Origin: a virus
Virus record (IMG/VR): IMGVR_UViG_3300013307_000002
Coordinates: 18,362-82,361 of that record
DNA: 64,000 bases
Direction: 5' to 3' (one strand)
Shown one piece after another: positions 2,268-32,664 of the stretch; position 1 is the stretch's first letter; every line of letters starts with the position of its first letter. The position numbers and the translations under genes were made by a program. The notes under the pieces are model-generated. The model was not told where the DNA came from. It did not search any database and worked only from the letters and a program-made list of their open reading frames with translations.

Positions 2268-2740
2268 GTTTTTCTGTGTACTACATTATGGATGGTAGTT
2301 CTACCAACACCATACCTAGTAGCTAAAGCCCGAACCCCGTAAGTACGAGACTCCGGTATAAACTCTTTCCGTATCTGGAGAACATCTTCTTCAGTAAGTA
2401 CGTGTTTTCCGTGACGTTCAGAATATAAATTATTATTTACTGCGTGTTCTACATTAATCTTTTGTGTACACCACTCTAGGTTGTCTATGTGGTTGTTAAG
2501 CTTATTACCATCTTTGTGATTAACAACTAAACCTTCGTAGCTTTCTTGTGGATGCCAAGTCATAGCAATCAATCTATGAATGGGGAGGTAGTGAACTTTT
2601 TTGTCAACTGTAACCTTAACTTCTAAATATCCTGCAAGATTGATTCTGCAATATCTTTGTTTCTTATTTGTTGGTTTTCTTATTTCACCAGTCTCGTTTA
2701 CCTCTAACCAAGACTCCCAACCATTTACGAGTTTGAACAT
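2252..2740 (-). CDS. HNH homing endonuclease (HNH_3 plus C-terminal HTH)
   Basis: IHRLIA...VNHKDGNKLNNHIDNLEW motif; C-terminal LATRYGVGRTTI helix-turn-helix. Confidence 0.9.
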   Translation of the reverse strand: MFKLVNGWESWLEVNETGEIRKPTNKKQRYCRINLAGYLEVKVTVDKKVHYLPIHRLIAMTWHPQESYEGLVVNHKDGNKLNNHIDNLEWCTQKINVEHAVNNNLYSERHGKHVLTEEDVLQIRKEFIPESRTYGVRALATRYGVGRTTIHNVVHRKTWRHI

Positions 2741-3037
2741 AATGCCTCCAATAATATCTATACATCTTATTCATTATTGAAAGGTGGAATAGGGTTCCGT
2801 AATAGGGACACTTTTATTCTCAAAAATCCGACGAGTGGGGTATAGAGCTTTTGGCGAAAAGGCAGAAAGGGGAGTCCTCATTTGGTTTTTCCTAAACAGA
2901 ACTATCCTTGTTTGTCAATCGGAACTATCCTAAATCGCTAGCCATTCACCGCTATGCATACCTATGCACTACCTACCCCTACCCATTAATAACAGGGGGT
3001 TTTATTCAGAGGATAAACTATTCAGTGTTATATCTTA

Positions 3038-3858
3038 TAAACTATTGATTCATATAATATAAAAAATGTAGGAAATAACCCGTATTTATGTTGACAACGT
3101 GATGCCGATATGATAGGCCCGACTATAGAACTAAGCATAGACTATACTCTGAGTAACTAAGCATTCATTGCTATTGCATAACCATTCATTATCCGCTGAG
3201 AAAGATAAAGTCTAAAGCATTAATAGCTAAAGAATGATTACATTTCCCAGGGTTAATAAACGTAGATTATTCAGTAGGTTAGTTGTAGTAGAGTTAGTAA
3301 GTTGTTGATTCTTCTCTCTTTTCTTCAGAGTGTGTTTGAGTGTAACGAAAACGTTAAAGATGTTAGTAGAGAGTTATATGCCTGTTAAGTAATTGTAATT
3401 AGATTGTTAATAGGATGTTATTCATACTTAGAATAAATATAGTAACTTAATGAAATAATTCTTGACATTTACTATTAAATATGTTATAATATACTATTAG
3501 AATGATAGTAATAAGTTATAATGTTTTATAGAATTATTATTAATTGAAATATTATTATTAGAAATTATAACTCTTAGAATTATTAACAAGGTTAACTCTA
3601 TTACATTCAGATCCGTAGTCTATAAGTACCAGATTATAGAGTGATTATTGAGCAGTTAGATTAAGTGGTTGATTTATAAGAAGTTTTATTTGTTGATTGT
3701 TGGAACTGTACAAGATACGCATGTACGCGTTCTATCTACTGAGCGATGATTGATTGGTACTAGATAGATAAACTGTTTATAAATCAGTAACTTAGATGTT
3801 TAGTGCGATGGGATGATAAGAATTTAGAGATTATTTTCTCTTTAGAATCAATAACTTA
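3038..3858. promoter_or_regulatory. Cluster of five IHF-consensus sites
   Basis: WATCAANNNNTTR matches at 3038-3050(-), 3298-3310(-), 3662-3674(-), 3846-3858(+), and a one-mismatch copy at 3782-3794(+). Confidence 0.6.
3462..3490 (+). promoter_or_regulatory. Consensus sigma70 promoter
   Basis: TTGACA-17 bp-TATAAT perfect match with AT-rich upstream sequence. Confidence 0.85.
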
Positions 3859-3890
3859 GAAGAAAGATTGAAAATAGTTAGACAAAATGG

Positions 3891-3918
3891 TTGCAGTGAA
3901 GGGCGATTCTGATATTAT
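3891..3918 (+). promoter_or_regulatory. Early sigma70 promoter P1
   Basis: TTGCAG-16-TATTAT with extended -10 TGn. Confidence 0.6.
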
Positions 3919-3968
3919 GTATCTCAAGCCAGCAGCAACGGCTCAGACAACTAGAAGTTTGGTTGTCG

Positions 3969-3981
3969 TGCTCTTTAACAA
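3969..3981 (+). promoter_or_regulatory. boxA antitermination element 1
   Basis: TGCTCTTTAACAA, the rrn leader boxA consensus, immediately preceded by hairpin GACAACTA/TGGTTGTC. Confidence 0.8.
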
Positions 3982-4106
3982 TCAGACTGTTATGTTATCC
4001 CTTTAGTAACGATGTTACAAGCTAACGAGAATTAACTAGATTGCCGTTGAGGTTGTTACTGGAAACAGTGACTTAGCAAAAAGGTTAATTGAGAGTGAAA
4101 AAGAGA

Positions 4107-4134
4107 TTGACAGATTAAAACAGTCTGATAGAAT
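4107..4134 (+). promoter_or_regulatory. Early sigma70 promoter P2
   Basis: TTGACA-16-TAGAAT with TGn extension and GC-rich discriminator GGGCACC. Confidence 0.75.
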
Positions 4135-4206
4135 GGGCACCAAGTTGAACGGAAAGCCGCGCTGAATAAGTTTAGTAAGCCCCGCAAGATGTTTAGCTAG
4201 TAGTAC

Positions 4207-4219
4207 CGCTCTTTAAAAA
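4207..4219 (+). promoter_or_regulatory. boxA antitermination element 2
   Basis: CGCTCTTTAAAAA about 70 nt downstream of P2. Confidence 0.75.
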
Positions 4220-4272
4220 TTTAACTTCAGTCTGGTCTGATAAACTATCTACTTAGCAGGGGAAGGTTTATC

Positions 4273-4461
4273 ATGGCAAGAAATACTCTTAAACGTGTGA
4301 TGTTAGGTTATATCCTAATTGATAACGAAACGGGCGCTGTATTCGACAGAGGCCCACACGACAGAGAGTGGTCACTAGTGATTAATAAGTCACTGGCAGA
4401 TACTCTCAGAGATTGGGGCGGCAAGGCTGCCATAGTCGGGCAAAACGTTGTGTTTAAGTGA
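4273..4461 (+). CDS. Small early hypothetical protein
   Basis: 62-aa ORF with purine-rich RBS (AGGGGAAGG). Confidence 0.6.
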   Translation: MARNTLKRVMLGYILIDNETGAVFDRGPHDREWSLVINKSLADTLRDWGGKAAIVGQNVVFK

Positions 4462-4518
4462 TGATAGACTGGCGCTCAGGCGCTGGTTTATCAGACTAGA
4501 TTGAAGTTGAAAAAATTG

Positions 4519-4546
4519 TTGACCTGACCGGCGATTGCTGTATAAT
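4519..4546 (+). promoter_or_regulatory. Early sigma70 promoter P3
   Basis: TTGACC-16-TATAAT with upstream A-tract; shares CAAGTTGA start-site sequence with P2. Confidence 0.8.
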
Positions 4547-4604
4547 GGTTAACAAGTTGAGGCGATAAGCCTTAACAGATAACGGTGTAACAGCTTGTTG
4601 TCGA

Positions 4605-4617
4605 CGCTCTTTAACAA
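4605..4617 (+). promoter_or_regulatory. boxA antitermination element 3
   Basis: CGCTCTTTAACAA about 60 nt downstream of P3. Confidence 0.8.
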
Positions 4618-4620
4618 ACA

Positions 4621-4924
4621 GGATGATTACTTAACTAGCGAAAGCAATCGCTTAGAATGACGCTCAGGCGCTTCTATGATGGTTGTTAGTAGGTTGGTTG
4701 TGTGTAGCGGGTAAATAAGCACAATCGACAAGGTTAGTAGCGAAACAGAAAGCTGATTATCATATCGGGCTTTTGTAGCAGTCTGCCTATCCGGTGAGAC
4801 TAAGCGCAATAGCTGTAAACGGTAGATGAAAGGTTAATAAGAAGTGCGAACGCCCACTAAGTTAAGATGACAATACAGAATGTAACAATTCGCTTTTGTC
4901 TATCATCCGAGCGGCTAACGCCGC
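4621..4924 (+). ncRNA. Candidate structured ncRNA A
   Basis: No credible ORF; nested and crossing helices read by hand (see findings). Confidence 0.55.
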
Positions 4925-4926
4925 GC

Positions 4927-5181
4927 CCCGTTTAACAATATGGTTTTGATTCTATCCAAGTATGAGACTAGCGAGATAGTTTAGTGTTGAGGATTGAAAG
5001 CAGATAACTCCCTGTTGTAGTTTGATATAGTGATTCTGTGAGTAGTGGCTTAACGATAATCGCTGATAGTAAAAGTAGGGCATGAGTACGTGATAGGCCG
5101 GAAAGTGTGCGAACTGAAAACGGTGATTAGTGCGGCGTTAGAGATTATTTGGATTAAATAGAATCGCCTTTGTTAAACGGG
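4927..5181 (+). ncRNA. Candidate structured ncRNA B
   Basis: Closed by a long interrupted stem (4927-4938 with 5170-5181, plus GATTCTAT/ATAGAATC and CCAAGTA/TATTTGG); no ORF. Confidence 0.5.
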
Positions 5182-5297
5182 AGGATAAAATGTAAAGCGT
5201 AAAGGTTTACAACCTAAATTAATGTGAGGTGGCTTGGTGCCTTAATCTGAAAAAGATTATGTGAGCATGAGCCTCTTTACCTGTTGTCAGTGCGGTT

Positions 5298-5309
5298 ACT
5301 ACTGTGACG
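5298..5309 (+). repeat. Dispersed 12-mer ACTACTGTGACG (first of 7 copies)
   Basis: Exact copies at 5298, 7641, 8264, 12219, 17167, 42263 (+) and 57390-57401 (-). Confidence 0.85.
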
Positions 5310-5364
5310 GCGCTGATAATGGTAAACAGGTTTTTAAACAACACCTTAGCAGGGAGTGAAGTAA

Positions 5365-5661
5365 ATGGAAAAAATAACACTGGTTAGAATGTTTAGACAA
5401 TTACTTGTTAGTTCAATCGACAAGTTAGGCGCAGGCGGTATGAAACCGGAGGCTGTTTATCGGGAGTTTATCGCTCGCAAGGCTAACATCCTCGAAAATG
5501 TACACTCTACCACTAACCGCAAAGAGCATTTAGCGTTAATGCTTATTGCAAACAAAGTTTATGTGAACCCCACTAAAAAGGGCAGTAGCGAACTGTTAAA
5601 GAAAGAGTTTGAAACGTGTTTAAACAAACTCCCTTCAGCAGTTAACGGTTTTAAAAAGTAG
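5365..5661 (+). CDS. Early hypothetical protein
   Basis: 98-aa ORF with AGGGAG RBS. Confidence 0.65.
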   Translation: MEKITLVRMFRQLLVSSIDKLGAGGMKPEAVYREFIARKANILENVHSTTNRKEHLALMLIANKVYVNPTKKGSSELLKKEFETCLNKLPSAVNGFKK

Positions 5662-5728
5662 TAAACTGTAGTACAATCCGAGTGTAATAACTCAATCTCA
5701 TAAATAAATACTTTGAAAGGTAAATAAA

Positions 5729-6610
5729 ATGTCTAAAGTTGAAATCGTAAAAGGTCAAGATAACATCCGTAGCGTAATTGGCGCAATCGCTGGTAAAGCT
5801 AAAGCGTACAAAACCGTTATTTCTAGCGCAATCCTCTCTGCTTATCAGCACTACCGTTTACACGGTGATTACACCCTGCTGCAAGAAGCGTTAGACACTG
5901 TTTTCTCTATCAATTACCGTGATTACTCCGCCGTTGCTGATTTTGTTCGCTCTTACACTGAGCTGGAATGTGTTACTCTTAATCAGGGCCGCCGTCAGCG
6001 TGTTGAGATCGCTGGAACAATTGAATCTCAGATGGAACGCCCGGAAAATATGTCCATGAAAGATTGGAACGCTAAGCTGGAGTCTAAGCGTAGTGAAATG
6101 ATCATCCGTAATGGTCGCTTTGACGATTTTGCTACCGGCAAGCCGATCCCAATGAAGAATCCTAATTGGGTACAGGGTATGCCTAAAGATGAAAAGCAGG
6201 AAGGCGTAGTTTACGACGGCGACATCTTTGCATGGCATGATGATGTTAAATGGCTGCGCACTGCTGCCCCTACTGTTGGCGGTGAAAGCACTGAAAACCT
6301 GCGAGAGCTGCCGGTAGAGCAAGCGGTAAACGTCGCTGTTAAACTGGAAGATCGTGTCCTGAAATCCAGCAACAAGCCAGTGTTTGCTGTCCTGATTCAT
6401 ATGATGGAACGTTTTGAAGCTGAAACCGGCGTGTATGCTACTGATGAAGAGATTGAAACTTTCCAGCGCCGTGTAAATGCACTGCTGGAGCGCACCAAAG
6501 CGCGGTCAGAAAGCAAAGCAGAACGTGAAGCTGCTGAAAAGCAGGCTGCTGAAGAAAACAGCGGTGAGCAGGTAGTAACAACAGAGCAGGGCGAACCACT
6601 GCCTTACTAA
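5729..6610 (+). CDS. Early phage protein, probably highly expressed
   Basis: 293 aa; strong host-optimal codon bias (ctg, cgt, gct, aaa); H..HGD.T motif reminiscent of early podophage proteins. Confidence 0.75.
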   Translation: MSKVEIVKGQDNIRSVIGAIAGKAKAYKTVISSAILSAYQHYRLHGDYTLLQEALDTVFSINYRDYSAVADFVRSYTELECVTLNQGRRQRVEIAGTIESQMERPENMSMKDWNAKLESKRSEMIIRNGRFDDFATGKPIPMKNPNWVQGMPKDEKQEGVVYDGDIFAWHDDVKWLRTAAPTVGGESTENLRELPVEQAVNVAVKLEDRVLKSSNKPVFAVLIHMMERFEAETGVYATDEEIETFQRRVNALLERTKARSESKAEREAAEKQAAEENSGEQVVTTEQGEPLPY

Positions 6611-7264: not shown

Positions 7265-7621
7265 ATGAAACAGCAAACAATATCTAAAGAGCGTCGCAAT
7301 GCGATGCATCGTAATTACAAGGCATACATAGGCAGGCTGATTGCCTTGTTCCCTGAAGTGTTTGACCGTGAAAACCCTAAGCCGCTGGCTATCGGTACTG
7401 CTGAAATGCTTCTCAGTCTGCCAGCGTTAAAGATGGATGATGATCTAGTGTCTGACGTGCTGGCTTGTTGGTGTAGCCGCCGGGAGTATATCCGTGCTGC
7501 TTATCAACTGCGGGAACGTTGGAACGTGGTCGGTGTGCCTGTTGGCCCTATCATTGATTGGCAACAGAAACGTTTTGACACTCTTTATCACAAGATGGTC
7601 AAGCGTGGTTTGTATAACTAA
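7265..7621 (+). CDS. ProQ/FinO-domain RNA chaperone-like protein
   Basis: LFPEVF...PKPLAIGT...WCSRREY...RWNVVGVPVGPI aligns by eye with the FinO/ProQ core (FP..F...PLKIGI...Y....Y...R.DL.G...G.). Confidence 0.8.
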   Translation: MKQQTISKERRNAMHRNYKAYIGRLIALFPEVFDRENPKPLAIGTAEMLLSLPALKMDDDLVSDVLACWCSRREYIRAAYQLRERWNVVGVPVGPIIDWQQKRFDTLYHKMVKRGLYN

Positions 7622-9651: not shown

Positions 9652-9727
9652 GATTCTGTAGTTCAGTTGGTAGAACGGTGGACTGTTAATCCATATGTCG
9701 CAGGTTCAAATCCTGCCAGAATCGCCA
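9652..9727 (+). tRNA. tRNA-Asn(GTT)
   Basis: Acceptor GATTCTG/CAGAATC, anticodon loop CTGTTAA, TTCAAAT T-loop, encoded CCA. Confidence 0.95.
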
Positions 9728-9733
9728 AACAAT

Positions 9734-9802
9734 GGGAACCTGAGCACTCTAGGGGACTAGAATATGAGCAATGGTTAATGACACTCGTGATGGTTCCCAC
9801 CA
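9734..9802 (+). ncRNA. CCA-terminated tRNA-like small RNA
   Basis: GGGAACC/GGTTCCC stem plus ACCA end, but no D-, anticodon or T-loop consensus. Confidence 0.55.
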
Positions 9803-9808
9803 TTCAAT

Positions 9809-9895
9809 GTTGGATTACTCAAGCGGCAACGAGAGCAGACTGTAAATCTGTGGCCCATATGGGCTTCGAAGGTTCGAGTCCTTCATCCAACACCA
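9809..9895 (+). tRNA. tRNA-Tyr(GTA)
   Basis: Acceptor GTTGGAT/ATCCAAC, loop CTGTAAA, long variable arm, CCA. Confidence 0.95.
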
Positions 9896-9930
9896 AACAA
9901 TGCACCTATAGTTAATTTTTGAGGTTTACT

Positions 9931-10140
9931 ATGGCAGACTGTAATCGTTGTGGGGATTCTGGGGGAAAGTACTCCCCAAATGAAAACTCTAATAATGGGG
10001 TTTTCTGTTACAACTGTATTGATATTGTGTTAGCTGGGGGCGGAGGAGGTGACTGTAACCCTCGTTACTCTGATAACCCCGGCACAAGGGAAGCTTATAG
10101 AAGACTTATGAGCGCCCCAAACTCAGAGTACAAGTATTAA
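9931..10140 (+). CDS. Small CxxC...CxxC protein inserted in the tRNA cluster
   Basis: ATG at 9931 after GAGG; CNRC and CYNC; flanked by a 17-bp direct repeat. Confidence 0.6.
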   Translation: MADCNRCGDSGGKYSPNENSNNGVFCYNCIDIVLAGGGGGDCNPRYSDNPGTREAYRRLMSAPNSEYKY

Positions 10141-10153
10141 TCAAATATATAAT

Positions 10154-10228
10154 GCACCTATAGTTAAATGGATATAACAGGAGCCTTCTAAGCTCTAGTT
10201 CTAGGTTCGATTCCTAGTGGGTGTGCCA
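10154..10228 (+). tRNA. tRNA-Arg(TCT)
   Basis: Loop CTTCTAA, TTCGATT T-loop, CCA. Confidence 0.95.
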
Positions 10229-10234
10229 TATTTA

Positions 10235-10323
10235 GCCCGGATGATGAAACTGGTAAACATAGGAGACTTAAAATTTCCCGTCTCGTAAGAGGCTTGCGGG
10301 TTCGACCCCCGCTCCGGGCACCA
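10235..10323 (+). tRNA. tRNA-Leu(TAA)
   Basis: Acceptor GCCCGGA/TCCGGGC, loop CTTAAAA, variable arm, CCA. Confidence 0.93.
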
Positions 10324-10356
10324 AACAAAGTAACTTTCAGTTCAGTGAGATAAAGT

Positions 10357-10554
10357 ATGAACAGAGAGCAGTCCTTGCACTGGAGGGGTTGGTTAGAAAA
10401 ACAGCCCATGTTTAATGCGAGAGTTTACTGTGTTAGATGTATGGCACCTTATAAAATAGGTGAATGTCAAGAGACACTAGATTCTCCGGGTTGCTATTGG
10501 AAGGAGAGTAAATGCCCTTCATGTGGGTGTAAACTTTATTACAGCCATCTATAG
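10357..10554 (+). CDS. Small zinc-ribbon protein
   Basis: CVRC...CPSC. Confidence 0.6.
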   Translation: MNREQSLHWRGWLEKQPMFNARVYCVRCMAPYKIGECQETLDSPGCYWKESKCPSCGCKLYYSHL

Positions 10555-10584
10555 TAATACATCTAGCAAGAATAACCAAACAAT

Positions 10585-10659
10585 AGGGCTATCGTATAAT
10601 GGTTATTACATCGGCCTTTGACTCCGATAATCCACGTTCGATTCGTGGTAGCTCTGCCA
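10585..10659 (+). tRNA. tRNA-Gln(TTG)
   Basis: Acceptor AGGGCTA/TAGCTCT, loop CTTTGAC, TTCGATT T-loop, CCA. Confidence 0.9.
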
Positions 10660-17987: not shown

Positions 17988-18422
17988 ATGTTCGGACTGA
18001 AAAAGAAACTGCAATCCCTGATCTCTTCCATCAAAAAGATCGAAAATAAATCTGCATTCCAAGCTGCTGTAGCTTCTGCTGTTTGGGTAGCTGCTGCTGA
18101 TGGCTCTATCGACGATAACGAACTGGATCTGCTGGAAAAACTGATCAAAGGCAACGATAAGCTGTCTAACTTCTCCAGCGAAATCGATTCTGAAATGGGC
18201 AAATGGGTTGCTGCCTTCACTGGCGGTGGTAAGCGTTCTGCAATGCTTCAGGTAAACGCTCTGCTGGATTCCATCAAAACTGACCGTGCTGCTGCTGAGC
18301 AGGTACTGGTTACTGTCATTGATGTGGCAGATACTGATAATAACATCGACGAAAATGAAGCGGCTGTCGTTCGTCAGGTTGCTTCCCGCCTCGGCCTGAA
18401 TGCTTCTAATTACGGCCTGTAA
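17988..18422 (+). CDS. terB: TerB-family tellurite-resistance protein
   Basis: VAAADGSIDDNE...VADTDNNIDENE duplicated metal-binding motif. Confidence 0.9.
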   Translation: MFGLKKKLQSLISSIKKIENKSAFQAAVASAVWVAAADGSIDDNELDLLEKLIKGNDKLSNFSSEIDSEMGKWVAAFTGGGKRSAMLQVNALLDSIKTDRAAAEQVLVTVIDVADTDNNIDENEAAVVRQVASRLGLNASNYGL

Positions 18423-18565
18423 TAAATGCTGATGGTCTTTCTTCAACTGTGGTGGATAGTGGCAGTGTTCGTAATAATACTGCTTTATACGTTCTAAGTT
18501 GATTACTTATAAGCCTCTACGGGGGCTTATTATTGATTAATCTTTGTGACAATAAGAGGTTCAAT

Positions 18566-19447
18566 ATGATTCGTCTTAAAATTAATAATGTCGATGTAGC
18601 CTTAAATCAGGTTTCATTCTCAGATGGAGCTAAGAGCTTATCACTTCGTGGTGCCTTACCTACCTACTGTAATAACGCCACCATTGAAGCAACACCCGAT
18701 GGCAGCCTTCCAGAGCTTTTCTTTGAAATTGCTCAATGTGTAGATGTTCTTCGTCAGAAGAATAATCGCATTGAAATTAAACTGATCATGCCTTACATTC
18801 CATATGCAAGACAAGATCGTCCAATGGTGCGCAACGATTCCTTCTCTCTCAGAGTGTTCGCTGATTTACTCAACAGCTTAAACCTCGATAAAGTTATTGT
18901 TGTCGATGCCCATAGCAATGTAAGCACCGCGTTAATTCGTAACTGTGTGCATATCGAGCAGCATCAGCTCATTTCATATTCTCCGATTCTGGTTATCTTC
19001 CCTAAAGATTGCGTTCTGGTTGCTCCAGACGAAGGATCTCTGAAGAAGATTAATAAGGTTGCTGATGTTGTTAAGCCTGCTGGCGTTGTTGTAATGTCTA
19101 AAGAGCGTGACGTTTCGACAGGACAAATTATTGGATCTTCGATTGTGTCTAGCCCTTTCCAATCGTTAGAAGGTCGAACCTGTACGATTGTTGATGATAT
19201 CTGCGATGGCGGAGCAACATTCATCAGTATCGCACAAAAGCTTAAAGAAGCTGGAGTTGAGCGTGTGTATCTCTGGGTTACTCATGGCATATTCAGTAAA
19301 GGTCTGACACCTTTGCTAGAGCAGGGTATTGATGGTGTCTACACCACAAACAGCCTGAACCAGTCTAAGCAACTTGACAAAGATTGGCGTGGTAAATTCT
19401 GCTCTTTCAACCTCTCTCCTATGATTTCCGCAAGAAGTTTAATGTGA
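18566..19447 (+). CDS. PRPP-synthetase-like protein (probable NARP1 ADPR-PP synthetase, Adps)
   Basis: FSDG, MPYIPYARQDR, VDAHS, APDEG, IVDDICDGGATF, VTHGIFS motifs; adjacent to a NAMPT-like gene. Confidence 0.9.
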   Translation: MIRLKINNVDVALNQVSFSDGAKSLSLRGALPTYCNNATIEATPDGSLPELFFEIAQCVDVLRQKNNRIEIKLIMPYIPYARQDRPMVRNDSFSLRVFADLLNSLNLDKVIVVDAHSNVSTALIRNCVHIEQHQLISYSPILVIFPKDCVLVAPDEGSLKKINKVADVVKPAGVVVMSKERDVSTGQIIGSSIVSSPFQSLEGRTCTIVDDICDGGATFISIAQKLKEAGVERVYLWVTHGIFSKGLTPLLEQGIDGVYTTNSLNQSKQLDKDWRGKFCSFNLSPMISARSLM

Positions 19448-19474
19448 TTACTATCTCTGATAATAGGATGTAAA

Positions 19475-21109
19475 ATGGATCTGAATCCGATTTTTGCAAT
19501 TGATGGCTATAAAACTTCACATCGTGACCAATACCCATCAGGCACTGAGAAGGTGTACGGCAACTTTACCCCTCGCAGTAATAAGCACTTTGACTCTCCA
19601 TTCTTTGCTAAACGCAAAGGTGGTAGCCCTCTGATTTGGGCTGGCTCTCAGGCGCTGGTTCTTCAGTGGTTGTGCAAAAACTTCAATCAGTATTTCTTCA
19701 ATGCTGATAAAACTCGCACGGTCAATGAGTTCAAATCTTTTATGGACTCATATCTCGGCAAAAATGCTGTTTCTGTAGATGGCATTGCTGCACTTCATGA
19801 CCTCGGATATCTGCCTCTGGAGATTAAATCTCTCCCTGAAGGTAGTTTCGTTGAAATGAAAACGCCAGTGCTTACCATCACAAATACTCTGCCTGAATTC
19901 TTCTGGCTGGTTAACTATCTGGAAACCCTGTTCAGCGCTGAGCTTTGGCCTGTAGCAACTGCTGCCACGATCGGTTTCAACTACCGCTGTATTGGCGAGT
20001 ATTGGGCAGCCAAGACTTGTGACAATTCAGAGCACATTGGTTGGCAGTTCCATGACTTCTCTGCCCGTGGTGACATGGGTATGTGGGCTAACACTCTGGT
20101 TGGTATGGGGCATCTGTTCTCCTTCACCGGCACTGATTCAGTGGCTGCTCTGCGTCGTCTGCAAATGCAGTATGAGATTGATTGTCTGGATGGTGGTTCT
20201 ATCCCAGCGACAGAGCATAGCGTGATGTGTATGGGGACTAAGGACGGTGAACTTGAAACGTTCCGCCGTCTTGTTCAAGATATCTATCCATCAGGCCCAA
20301 TGGCAGCAGTGGGTGATACTTGGGATTGGTGGAAAGTCCTTCTTGAGTATGCTTCCCAACTGAAAGAGATTATTTTGTCCCGCGAAGGCAAAGTAGTTTT
20401 CCGTCCAGACTCAGGTGACCCGGTAGATATTATCTGCGGTGAGCAGTTCATCGATCTGGATAGTTGTACTCATCTTGGCGAAGCACTTACTACTATGCTG
20501 CGTGCTAGAGCTGAAGGTCTTGTTTGCCGTTTTAATGGCGAATATTTCCGTCTAGTTGACGGTGGCTTTGTTCAAGTTCCTGAACACATCATCAAAGGCT
20601 CTATTCAGTTGCTGTGGGAAATCTTTGGTGGCACGATCAATAAGAAGGGCTTCAAAGTTCTGAACCCTAAAGTTGGTCTGATTTATGGTGATAGCATCAC
20701 TATGGAACGTGCTGAAGAGATTTTCGAACGCTTAGCCAATAAGAGCTTTGCGTCGTCCAACGTAGTGCTGGGTATTGGTTCTTATACCTATCAGTATGTT
20801 ACTCGTGACACGTTTGGTTTTGCCATGAAAGCTACTTATGGCGTTGTTAATGGCGAACCTCGTGAAATCTTTAAAGACCCTGCTACCGATGATGGGACTA
20901 AGAAGTCTCTGAAAGGTCTGCTATGCCACACGGTTAATGATCGTGGTGAATGGTCAGTTAAAGATCAAGTAACCCCTGAAGAAGAGGCTAAGAGCGAGCT
21001 GACCACTATCTTTAAAGATGGTAAGGTCACTGGTCACACTTCCCTTCAGGAAATTCGTAACCGCGTATCTTATGCGGTGTCTAAATTCGTGGCAGAACGT
21101 TCTGTCTAA
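19475..21109 (+). CDS. Nicotinamide phosphoribosyltransferase-like protein (probable NARP1 Namat)
   Basis: DGYKTSH, HDFSARG, PATEHSVM, RPDSGDP, LIYGDSI, TRDTFGFAMKAT motifs. Confidence 0.92.
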   Translation: MDLNPIFAIDGYKTSHRDQYPSGTEKVYGNFTPRSNKHFDSPFFAKRKGGSPLIWAGSQALVLQWLCKNFNQYFFNADKTRTVNEFKSFMDSYLGKNAVSVDGIAALHDLGYLPLEIKSLPEGSFVEMKTPVLTITNTLPEFFWLVNYLETLFSAELWPVATAATIGFNYRCIGEYWAAKTCDNSEHIGWQFHDFSARGDMGMWANTLVGMGHLFSFTGTDSVAALRRLQMQYEIDCLDGGSIPATEHSVMCMGTKDGELETFRRLVQDIYPSGPMAAVGDTWDWWKVLLEYASQLKEIILSREGKVVFRPDSGDPVDIICGEQFIDLDSCTHLGEALTTMLRARAEGLVCRFNGEYFRLVDGGFVQVPEHIIKGSIQLLWEIFGGTINKKGFKVLNPKVGLIYGDSITMERAEEIFERLANKSFASSNVVLGIGSYTYQYVTRDTFGFAMKATYGVVNGEPREIFKDPATDDGTKKSLKGLLCHTVNDRGEWSVKDQVTPEEEAKSELTTIFKDGKVTGHTSLQEIRNRVSYAVSKFVAERSV

Positions 21110-31410: not shown

Positions 31411-32664
31411 ATGACTCGTATTGCTATCCTTCCTTATGGCCCATCTGACTCTTGTACTGCACTGCGTGATGCTCTTATTGCTCAGTTTGAAGGTGACAAC
31501 ACTACTTCTGTTCGTAAACTTCGTAGTGATAATAGCAGCACTTTTCGTGGTCGTGCTGGTGATATCATCATCAACTATGGCAATCGTTCAGCCCCTGAAG
31601 AACGTTTCGGTAATGCCTTTGTCTTAAACAGTCAGGGTGCTCTGAGAAATGCAGCTAACAAGCTGAATGCCTTGAATACGATGCGTAATAACAACGTGTC
31701 AACTGTCCCATTCACTGTAAACTCAGAAGAAGCTCGTATTTGGGCGGCATCTGGTTCAGTTGTATATGCTCGTACAACTTTGAATGGTCACTCTGGTGAA
31801 GGTATTGTTGTTGTCAATGCTAATAACATTGATGCTATGCCGGAAGCACCTCTGTACACCAAGGGTATTACTGGTCGTCGTCGTGAATGGCGTGTTCATG
31901 TTTTCGATGGTGTAATCACTCATGTTCAGGTTAAACGTCGTCGTAACGGTTATGCTGAAGATCCTAACTATCGTGATGATGTACGTAACCATCAAACTGG
32001 TTGGATTTATGCAACTGAAAACATCAACCCATCTCAGGCAGTTCTGCGTAATGCAGTGAATGCTGTTGCTTGTATGGGTCTTGACTTCGGTGCTGTTGAT
32101 ATCATCAGTCTTGGTGATGAAGCTTGGGTTCTGGAGGTTAATACTGCTCCGGGTCTTCAGGCAGAAACTACTATGACAGCTTTTGTCAATGCTCTAACTG
32201 CGAAAATTCATAACATTCGCTTCCGGGGTGCGCCTCAAATGGTTATCACTCCAGCGTTCCAACTGGAACCAGAGGTACAGGAAGAAGATGCTTTTACTCC
32301 AGAAGAAATTGCTGCTGAAGAAGATGATCTTGCTGGTAGTTATGACCCAGAAGCCGCAGCCTTCTTTAATGCGGGAGCTTTTGGCACTGATCGTCCGGCA
32401 GCCATGTCAGCTCCTCAAGTACAAATGACTGCTGAAGGTACTCTCCCTGAAGCAGAAACTCGCAATGTTCCAGATGGCTATTATCTTGCAAATATTCAGC
32501 GAATGGACGATCGTTCAACTGCAATGAATGTAATTGTGTGGGTTTCTAGTGGTCTTGTATATCGACACGGTTGGAACTCTCCGATTCGTCTGAGTCAAGT
32601 TCGTGGCCTTCGTGCCATCACCTCTGTAGTGTCTGGTAACGAAACTGTAGCTGTTTCTGTATAA
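31411..32664 (+). CDS. ATP-grasp ligase
   Basis: ANKL, GHSGEGI, EWRVHV, VRNH, LDFGAVDI...VLEVNTAPG motifs. Confidence 0.9.
   Translation: MTRIAILPYGPSDSCTALRDALIAQFEGDNTTSVRKLRSDNSSTFRGRAGDIIINYGNRSAPEERFGNAFVLNSQGALRNAANKLNALNTMRNNNVSTVPFTVNSEEARIWAASGSVVYARTTLNGHSGEGIVVVNANNIDAMPEAPLYTKGITGRRREWRVHVFDGVITHVQVKRRRNGYAEDPNYRDDVRNHQTGWIYATENINPSQAVLRNAVNAVACMGLDFGAVDIISLGDEAWVLEVNTAPGLQAETTMTAFVNALTAKIHNIRFRGAPQMVITPAFQLEPEVQEEDAFTPEEIAAEEDDLAGSYDPEAAAFFNAGAFGTDRPAAMSAPQVQMTAEGTLPEAETRNVPDGYYLANIQRMDDRSTAMNVIVWVSSGLVYRHGWNSPIRLSQVRGLRAITSVVSGNETVAVSV

Follow-up and report, generated by a model that had tools for sequence, protein, structure and literature searches.

An RNA fold absent from catalogued families, set in an rrn-like cassette of an uncultured phiEco32-related phage

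The locus considered here raises the question of what a phage makes from some 300 nucleotides that lie directly behind a promoter and a boxA and in which no gene can be read. It belongs to the window, the 64,000 nucleotides of DNA from base 18362 to base 82361 of an IMG/VR virus record that has direct terminal repeats and is 82,361 bp long. A sequence-only reading had described positions 4621-4924 as a compact, pseudoknotted RNA of the plus strand that stands alone and could not be assigned to a family. The analysis confirmed the observation behind this description in part and supports its interpretation in part. Positions 4621-4908 (D1) are a conserved, independently folding non-coding RNA domain on the plus strand, and the compact, multi-branched shape is upheld by compensatory pairs. 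D1 is an RNA fold absent from the catalogued families, set in an rrn-like phage cassette. It is not a stand-alone RNA, being the first of three structured blocks (D1, D2, and D3) of a 750-nt untranslated early leader that heads a long rightward early operon, with a positional counterpart in phiEco32-like coliphages.

The window phage is an uncultured phiEco32 relative. Kuravirus and Suseptimavirus coliphages (phiEco32 group, Gordonclarkvirinae) have primase/helicases 78-79% identical to its own, whereas its GlmS-like protein is only 41% identical. Genes of the window are directed leftward up to ~2740 and rightward from ~4270 to 54,284, with an ORF-poor region in between. The early ORFs gave no Pfam match except for a ProQ domain and a cell-wall hydrolase. 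The phage is also equipped with ribosome-modifying and NAD-salvage genes, encoding a RimK-like “ribosomal protein S6 glutaminyl transferase” (phrog_2599) and a PRPP synthetase/NAMPT pair (31411-32664; 18533-21109).

The ORF-poor region contains three promoter-like sites, all on the plus strand with 11-12 of 12 hexamer matches, although promoter-like sites taken together are not enriched in 2700-6000 (11 versus 9.6 in shuffles). Two of the three, 4107-4134 and 4519-4546, each lie 60 to 75 nt upstream of a boxA. The boxA-type 12-mer occurs three times with at most one mismatch (3970, 4208, and 4606), always on the plus strand, where 0.54 copies are expected; three copies were reached in 1 of 100 shuffles. 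The 12-mer of the third copy, boxA3, is what we take to be the rrn boxA core. Thus, 4606-4617 shows the arrangement of an rrn-type leader, with the boxA on the transcribed strand and a promoter upstream. D1 begins 3 nt past this third promoter-plus-boxA unit and ~70 nt past a near-consensus host-type promoter, and the start proposed from sequence, right after boxA3 and downstream of a sigma70-type promoter, was upheld. The features are collected in Table 1.

Table 1 Features of D1 and its surroundings, with window coordinates
Feature	Coordinates	Strand	Remarks
Near-consensus sigma70-type promoter-like sites	3462-3490, 4107-4134, 4519-4546	+	In the ORF-poor region
Promoter P3 (early; TTGACC, 16-nt spacer, TATAAT)	4519-4546	+	11/12 hexamer matches; start predicted near 4553
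boxA3 (GCTCTTTAACAA), third copy	4606-4617	+	60 nt after the -10 hexamer of promoter P3
Helix P1, closing	4621-4627/4902-4908	+	In all three independent MFE folds
Helix P2	4630-4638/4857-4866 (A4860 bulged)	+	9 pairs, 3 compensatory; 2 non-canonical cells
Helix P3	4643-4649/4681-4687 (span 4643-4687)	+	7 pairs, 2 compensatory
Helix P4 (hairpin)	4693-4703/4719-4729	+	In all three MFE folds; conserved apical loop region
Arm P5, long	4752-4787/4793-4834	+	Apical 5-nt loop within invariant 14-mer 4784-4797
Hairpin P6	4870-4873/4896-4899 and 4878-4881/4888-4891 (span 4870-4899)	+	8 pairs, 4 compensatory; invariant 6-nt loop
Hairpin T	4911-4924	+	5 pairs, 1 compensatory; between D1 and the D2 stalk, outside the domain
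Domain D2 (context)	4926-5181	+	61 pairs, 21 compensatory
Block D3 (context)	5182-5364	+	38 pairs, 8 compensatory

A long-range helix starts with its 5' strand 0 to 3 nt behind each true boxA copy; the three helices are 3981-3991/4119-4129, 4220-4257/4474-4511, and P1. As in an rrn leader, the helix adjoining each of the three boxA copies encloses untranslated structured RNA, and P1 covaries. The helix behind the first boxA is a perfect 11-bp duplex; the one behind the second is 38 nt long and 79% complementary, and encloses a 62-aa ORF (4273-4461). At the end of this ORF, the 10 nt at 4460-4469 are perfectly complementary to the 3' P1 strand (4898-4907). The pairing is absent from both relatives of the phage described below and was rejected; in transcripts from the upstream promoters the complement could compete with P1. 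A “boxA-like” run at 4926-4938 was likewise rejected as a fourth boxA, since it is included in the D2 stalk, of which it is the 5' strand. This stalk is an interrupted helix of ~30 bp (4927-4962/5146-5181, inverted repeat I2). D3 consists of a variable part followed by two conserved hairpins ahead of the ribosome-binding site of a 98-aa gene.

This gene (5365-5661) gave access to relatives of the phage, the contigs L002 (87,959 bp), with a protein 59% identical, and L074 (90,425 bp). D1 and hairpin T are present in only these two other phage contigs, so that the comparison rests on three full sequences, including the window. The leader is colinear across the three phages from 4500 to 5370, with invariant blocks alternating with variable stretches and indels. 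Both relatives retain the hexamers of promoter P3 and, with one change, boxA3. The nucleotide identity is 63 to 71% for D1 versus 62 to 64% for the neighbouring gene, and hence the rates of change are about equal.

Wider searches added no relatives of D1. Compared with 50,697 GenBank phage records, neither the leader DNA (blastn) nor the 98-aa gene (tblastn) gave a match. Three motif scans of IMG/VR returned 14, 50, and 8 stretches, among which only the already known contig was homologous by blastn, and a two-block motif recovered nothing there beyond the two relatives already known. Two candidates were dismissed as chance matches: a 27-nt match in L014, which lies in coding DNA, and the single match of the two-block motif in GTDB genomes, in a Ferruginibacter MAG contig (L078) that shows no further similarity. 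No locus came from a search with the 293-aa gene or from the protein alignment A2 compared with genome contigs. The 98-aa early protein, which has no Pfam or PHROG match, has nine further homologues in public assemblies and contains two invariant peptide blocks. Among public sequencing runs, 23 rows from 16 studies carry at least part of the stretch.

The three sequences were used to look for covariation. RNAalifold on the unedited MAFFT alignment gave 71 pairs, of which 26 have changes on both sides, compared with 10.8 ± 2.5 double changes in shuffles and 1 to 5 in slid controls; 92.5% of the cells are paired versus 81.3 ± 1.8 in shuffles. Five measures on this alignment were each unreached by any of 500 shuffles (0/500), a significance that is inflated by the relatedness of the sequences. 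In a second alignment, three gaps misplaced by MAFFT were moved without changing any letter. Unconstrained RNAalifold then also yields helix 4630-4638/4857-4866 and the full closing helix. The 81 pairs of this alignment include 33 that are invariant, 14 that vary on one side, and 29 that are compensatory (slid controls, 1 to 7), and 16 of 242 cells are non-canonical. Pairs that are both fully canonical and compensatory number 24, compared with a mean of 1.6 and a maximum of 6 on random re-pairing. An R-scape-type statistic is impossible with only three full sequences. The homologue collection and covariation check proposed with the sequence-only reading gave 26 to 29 compensatory pairs in three phages.

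The eight complementary segment pairs listed from the window are all present there, and five of them are conserved in both relatives with compensatory changes: the closing helix (P1), P2, P4, hairpin T, and 4780-4784/4797-4801, which is part of the long arm P5. The other three are found only in the window. CGCTTAG/CTAAGCG has 7 of 7 canonical pairs in the window and 2 of 7 in each relative, and GCGCTTCT/AGAAGTGC has 8 of 8 in the window, 1 of 8 in L002, and 0 of 8 in L074, because the segment is deleted in both relatives. The third, ATGATGGTT/GATTATCAT (9 of 9 in the window, 4 of 9 in L002, and 2 of 9 in L074), clashes with the conserved helix P3. The pseudoknot loses its support with them, given that both of its helices are window-only and not conserved. 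Among the unpaired columns, a scan revealed no pseudoknot stack of at least 4 pairs that all three sequences can form canonically; the P4 and P5 loops may touch through 3 bp (4709-4711/4790-4792). A pairing between 4915-4924 and 5132-5141, absent from the relatives, was also rejected as window-only.

The conserved fold is organized around two junctions, a three-way junction of P1, P2, and P6 and a four-way junction where P2 opens into the arms P3, P4, and P5. P1 has one A-U pair that switches to G-C, and an inserted pair that reads U-A in L002 but A-U in L074; moreover, the best upstream complement of its 3' strand in both relatives is its own 5' strand. The hairpin inside helix P3 (4653-4657/4671-4675 in the window) is different in L002 and missing from L074, with deletions of 6 and 21 nt in this variable part. 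Six pairs of P4 change on both sides, one of them taking three different Watson-Crick types. P5 (helices 5 to 7 of the pair count) contributes 31 pairs, 11 with changes on both sides, and its middle part (helix 6) is only 75.8% paired. Folded independently, the three sequences have P1, P4, the P5 apex, P6, and T in common in their MFE structures. The GAAA-type loops noted earlier fared unevenly: within D1 they are not loops in the consensus, where CGAA 4639-4642 is a junction, whereas hairpin T has a GNRA loop (GCAA) in both relatives and GAAA in one further variant.

The folding energy of the plus strand of the window is −90.7 kcal/mol (z = −2.86), with none of 100 shuffles as good, in line with the expectation that folding should surpass shuffled controls. 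The minus strand gave z = −1.69, with 7 of 100 shuffles as good. L002 folds with z = −4.59, while the own fold of L074 is no better than shuffles (z = −1.21; 23 of 200 as good). The predicted preference for the plus strand was also borne out by the pairs themselves, since 226 of 242 cells are canonical on the plus strand, 38 of them G-U, versus 192 if the pairs are read on the minus strand.

Natural variants were collected from four of the 24 runs listed, which stem from silage, soil, a coded organism, and a surface metatranscriptome, and 40 of their 79 differences are given. The variants given include 29 substitutions in 4621-4924, of which 13 fall at paired positions, and 10 of 10 substitutions in P3 to P6 keep or gain a canonical pair. 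Double switches were observed at 4783 and 4798 (C-G to U-A) and, in P6, at 4873 and 4896 (A-U to U-A). In P5, the variants at 4770, 4783 with 4798, 4810, 4822, and 4828 keep or gain pairing, that at 4810 by repairing a U-U mismatch. Hairpin T carries three substitutions and a 1-nt deletion; two cells are non-canonical in the fixed register, and the 5-bp stem is back in a shifted register that counts the deletion (read by hand). A 151-nt contig from an RNA library covers 4620-4763; it is possibly DNA carry-over and gives a faint hint of transcription of the D1 region.

The absence of a known family was borne out by an Rfam scan. With Rfam 15, the whole window gave only five tRNAs, whose genes lie on the plus strand at 9652-10656, ~4 kb downstream of the leader. 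Between 3000 and 5700, with E values up to 10, the only matches were two chance matches to mir-8186 (5591-5643), and none of the self-cleaving ribozyme families of Rfam matched even at this threshold. Membership was taken as a score at or above the gathering score of the family, and no family model, those of riboswitches, tmRNA, RNase P, and 6S RNA included, scored so on D1. The roles proposed from sequence, as a ribozyme, decoy, or anti-defence RNA, gained no support. A covariance model of P4-P5 (R1) found no second copy in the window.

The phiEco32-group coliphages have four units of promoter plus boxA and a structured leader of ~800 nt that carries no annotation. In IME267 (L084, 1781-3419, minus strand), four boxA cores on one strand and a gene-free stretch of 1.6 kb precede gp101, to which the 293-aa ORF of the window (5729-6610) is 22% identical (E = 2e-10). 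The leaders thus share the position after a promoter-plus-boxA array and before a homologous first gene of ~300 aa (gp124/gp101). Directly after the last boxA of the coliphages comes a first domain of ~315 nt, similar in size to D1, which is present in 98 GenBank coliphage records at 78 to 100% identity; among the 30 of these records that are listed, it is unannotated apart from one “hypothetical protein.” In IME267 this region folds with z = −2.59, and across five phages the domain has 90 pairs, 20 of them compensatory. Its branching is that of D1, with P1 enclosing P2, which carries three arms, and the P6 hairpin standing between the 3' strands of P2 and P1, while the arm lengths differ.

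The two domains do not resemble each other in sequence. With nhmmer, D1 and the coliphage leader share one 21-nt run (E = 0.69). The covariance model of P4-P5 scores 144 to 160 bits on its three training sequences and at most 12.5 bits elsewhere; on the IME267 locus it reaches no more than 10.2 bits (E = 2.8), outside the first leader domain, in what is a weak test with 150 positions and three sequences. Since the similarity is undetectable in sequence or by the model, homology is inferred from position and shape only. D1 and the coliphage domain are positional and architectural counterparts, and their common descent is likely.

A ProQ/FinO-domain gene is located at 7265-7621 of the window (PF04352; 46.7 bits, with a cut-off of 27). 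The domain is above the Pfam cut-off in the phage of L002, below it in IME267 (25.9 bits), and absent from phiEco32, and a link to D1 was rejected given this patchy presence.

Taken together, we consider it probable that the leader works as an rrn-operon-like cassette, in which boxA and the host Nus factors would provide Rho-resistant transcription and promote closing of the domain, and the folded D1 would bind an early partner. Host sigma70 RNA polymerase would initiate at promoter P3, and the nascent boxA would recruit NusB/S10 along with NusA, NusG, and SuhB. The polymerase may thereby become Rho-resistant over the 750 nt of long, untranslated, C-poor RNA, and perhaps over the whole 50-kb operon. 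Anchoring of boxA would keep the 5' strand of P1 close to the channel through which the RNA leaves, so that it is still there when its 3' partner strand appears 280 nt further on, and may in this way aid closing. Such looping and anchoring by boxA is proposed for the 16S leader-trailer helix in PMC10250234. The ~30-bp stalk of D2 is a plausible RNase III site, and its cleavage would release a 5' fragment of ~380 to 400 nt with the leader, boxA, D1, and hairpin T. P1 and P2 do not offer such a site, so that the expected 5' product is leader-boxA-D1-T and no free 290-nt RNA. Loops and junctions whose single-stranded sequence is invariant point to a protein or RNA partner that D1 would bind early in infection.

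A bolder version, which we regard as doubtful, is an “RNA operon” that imitates the rRNA operon. In it, the host NusB/S10, NusA, NusG, and SuhB would transcribe, fold, and mature stable D1 and D2 RNAs acting in trans as scaffolds or decoys, and the very abundant transcripts, with their three boxA copies, would draw these factors off the host rrn operons.

The alternative that survives best is that D1 is purely a cis-acting part of the leader. It would then be a structured, C-poor spacer that shields the transcript from Rho or RNases, or times the early operon, and would never be released or have a partner of its own. We hold this to be possible but clearly less probable than the rrn-like cassette with a bound partner. 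D1 runs on into D2, D3, and the first gene without a physical break, and 4600-5364 contains no terminator-like site. P1 and P2 are too short and too branched for an RNase III site, the leader is indeed low in C (15.9% C and 25.9% G), and D1 changes at a rate similar to that of the neighbouring gene. However, a spacer would have no need to keep loops and junctions invariant in phages that share only 59% identity in the neighbouring protein, nor to keep a fixed branching pattern, which recurs in phiEco32-like phages without sequence similarity.

A role of the DNA itself, as an origin of replication, a packaging site, or an array of protein-binding sites with inverted repeats that function in the double strand, would suit the position of D1, ~1.5 kb from the divergent AT-rich strand-switch region. 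This is very improbable, given that the 38 G-U cells would be mismatches in DNA, that the canonical cells fall from 226 to 192 on the other strand, and that the compensatory changes uphold RNA-type pairing.

Still less credence is due to the idea that the helices arise by chance from complementary stretches of an AT-rich non-coding spacer that has no functional RNA structure. The three window-only helices and the z score of L074 point in that direction, but the 26 to 29 compensatory pairs stand against 1 to 7 in slid controls and 10.8 in shuffles, and the natural variants preserve pairing, so that this reading is already contradicted. The same holds, at the same negligible probability, for conservation at the level of a small minus-strand protein (a 60-aa ORF, 4627-4809): a minus-strand ORF of 55 aa lies in this area of L002 and the deletions in the variable hairpin of helix P3 are multiples of three, but the ORFs of the window and L002 read the invariant 14-mer in different frames, and L074 has 5 to 8 stops per minus-strand frame and a longest open stretch of 37 aa. 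Across the three phages, no reading frame is conserved over D1; on the plus strand, the earlier statement that there is no ORF holds for frames of at least 30 aa across 4621-4924, the longest open frame in D1 being 22 aa.

If the rrn-like reading is true, lytic enterobacterial phages use the host machinery for rRNA transcription to make large folded RNAs of their own. Should the more doubtful RNA operon prove right, the phiEco32-like coliphages, which are easy to grow, bear the same device unnoticed. The counterpart is present in 98 coliphage records and, among the 30 listed, is unannotated but for the one “hypothetical protein,” which makes the idea directly testable in phiEco32 on E. coli K-12 derivatives. 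Such a test would show what this new RNA fold, whose three-way and four-way junctions are well defined, does for the phage. No paper found in our literature searches describes structured RNAs led by a boxA in lytic phages. The accessible text of the paper on phage 7-11 states that the antitermination strategy “remains to be defined,” and boxA is unmentioned in that text.

Among known systems, several large RNAs are comparable with D1. The RNAs GOLLD, ROOL, and OLE are large and intricately folded, their biochemical function is unknown, and GOLLD and ROOL are often borne by phages or prophages. D1 does not match their Rfam models; it is smaller, lies in an mRNA leader, and is led by a boxA. The boxA element is common to nut sites, and the boxA of the window phage is presumably of the rrn type and not of the nut type. 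The lambda nut and HK022 put sites are likewise RNA signals in an early phage transcript that render the host polymerase resistant to termination, according to the abstract of PMC2800207. In contrast, D1 has four times the size of put and branches far more.

The closest parallel is the rrn operon. Its leader likewise comprises a strong sigma70-type promoter, a hairpin, and a boxA, after which comes the 5' strand of a long-range helix; this helix closes off a large structured RNA that is not translated. The next domain, which is D2 in the phage, likewise lies within a second, long stalk. The spacing differs, with P1 starting 3 nt after boxA here, whereas boxC follows boxA by 18 to 19 nt in enterobacterial rrn operons, as given in PMC10250234. 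Moreover, the RNA enclosed here is not ribosomal RNA. Since no rRNA model of Rfam matched, the D1 cassette would work like an rrn cassette and is not one itself; unlike the rrn operon, it is borne by a phage and leads into protein-coding early genes.
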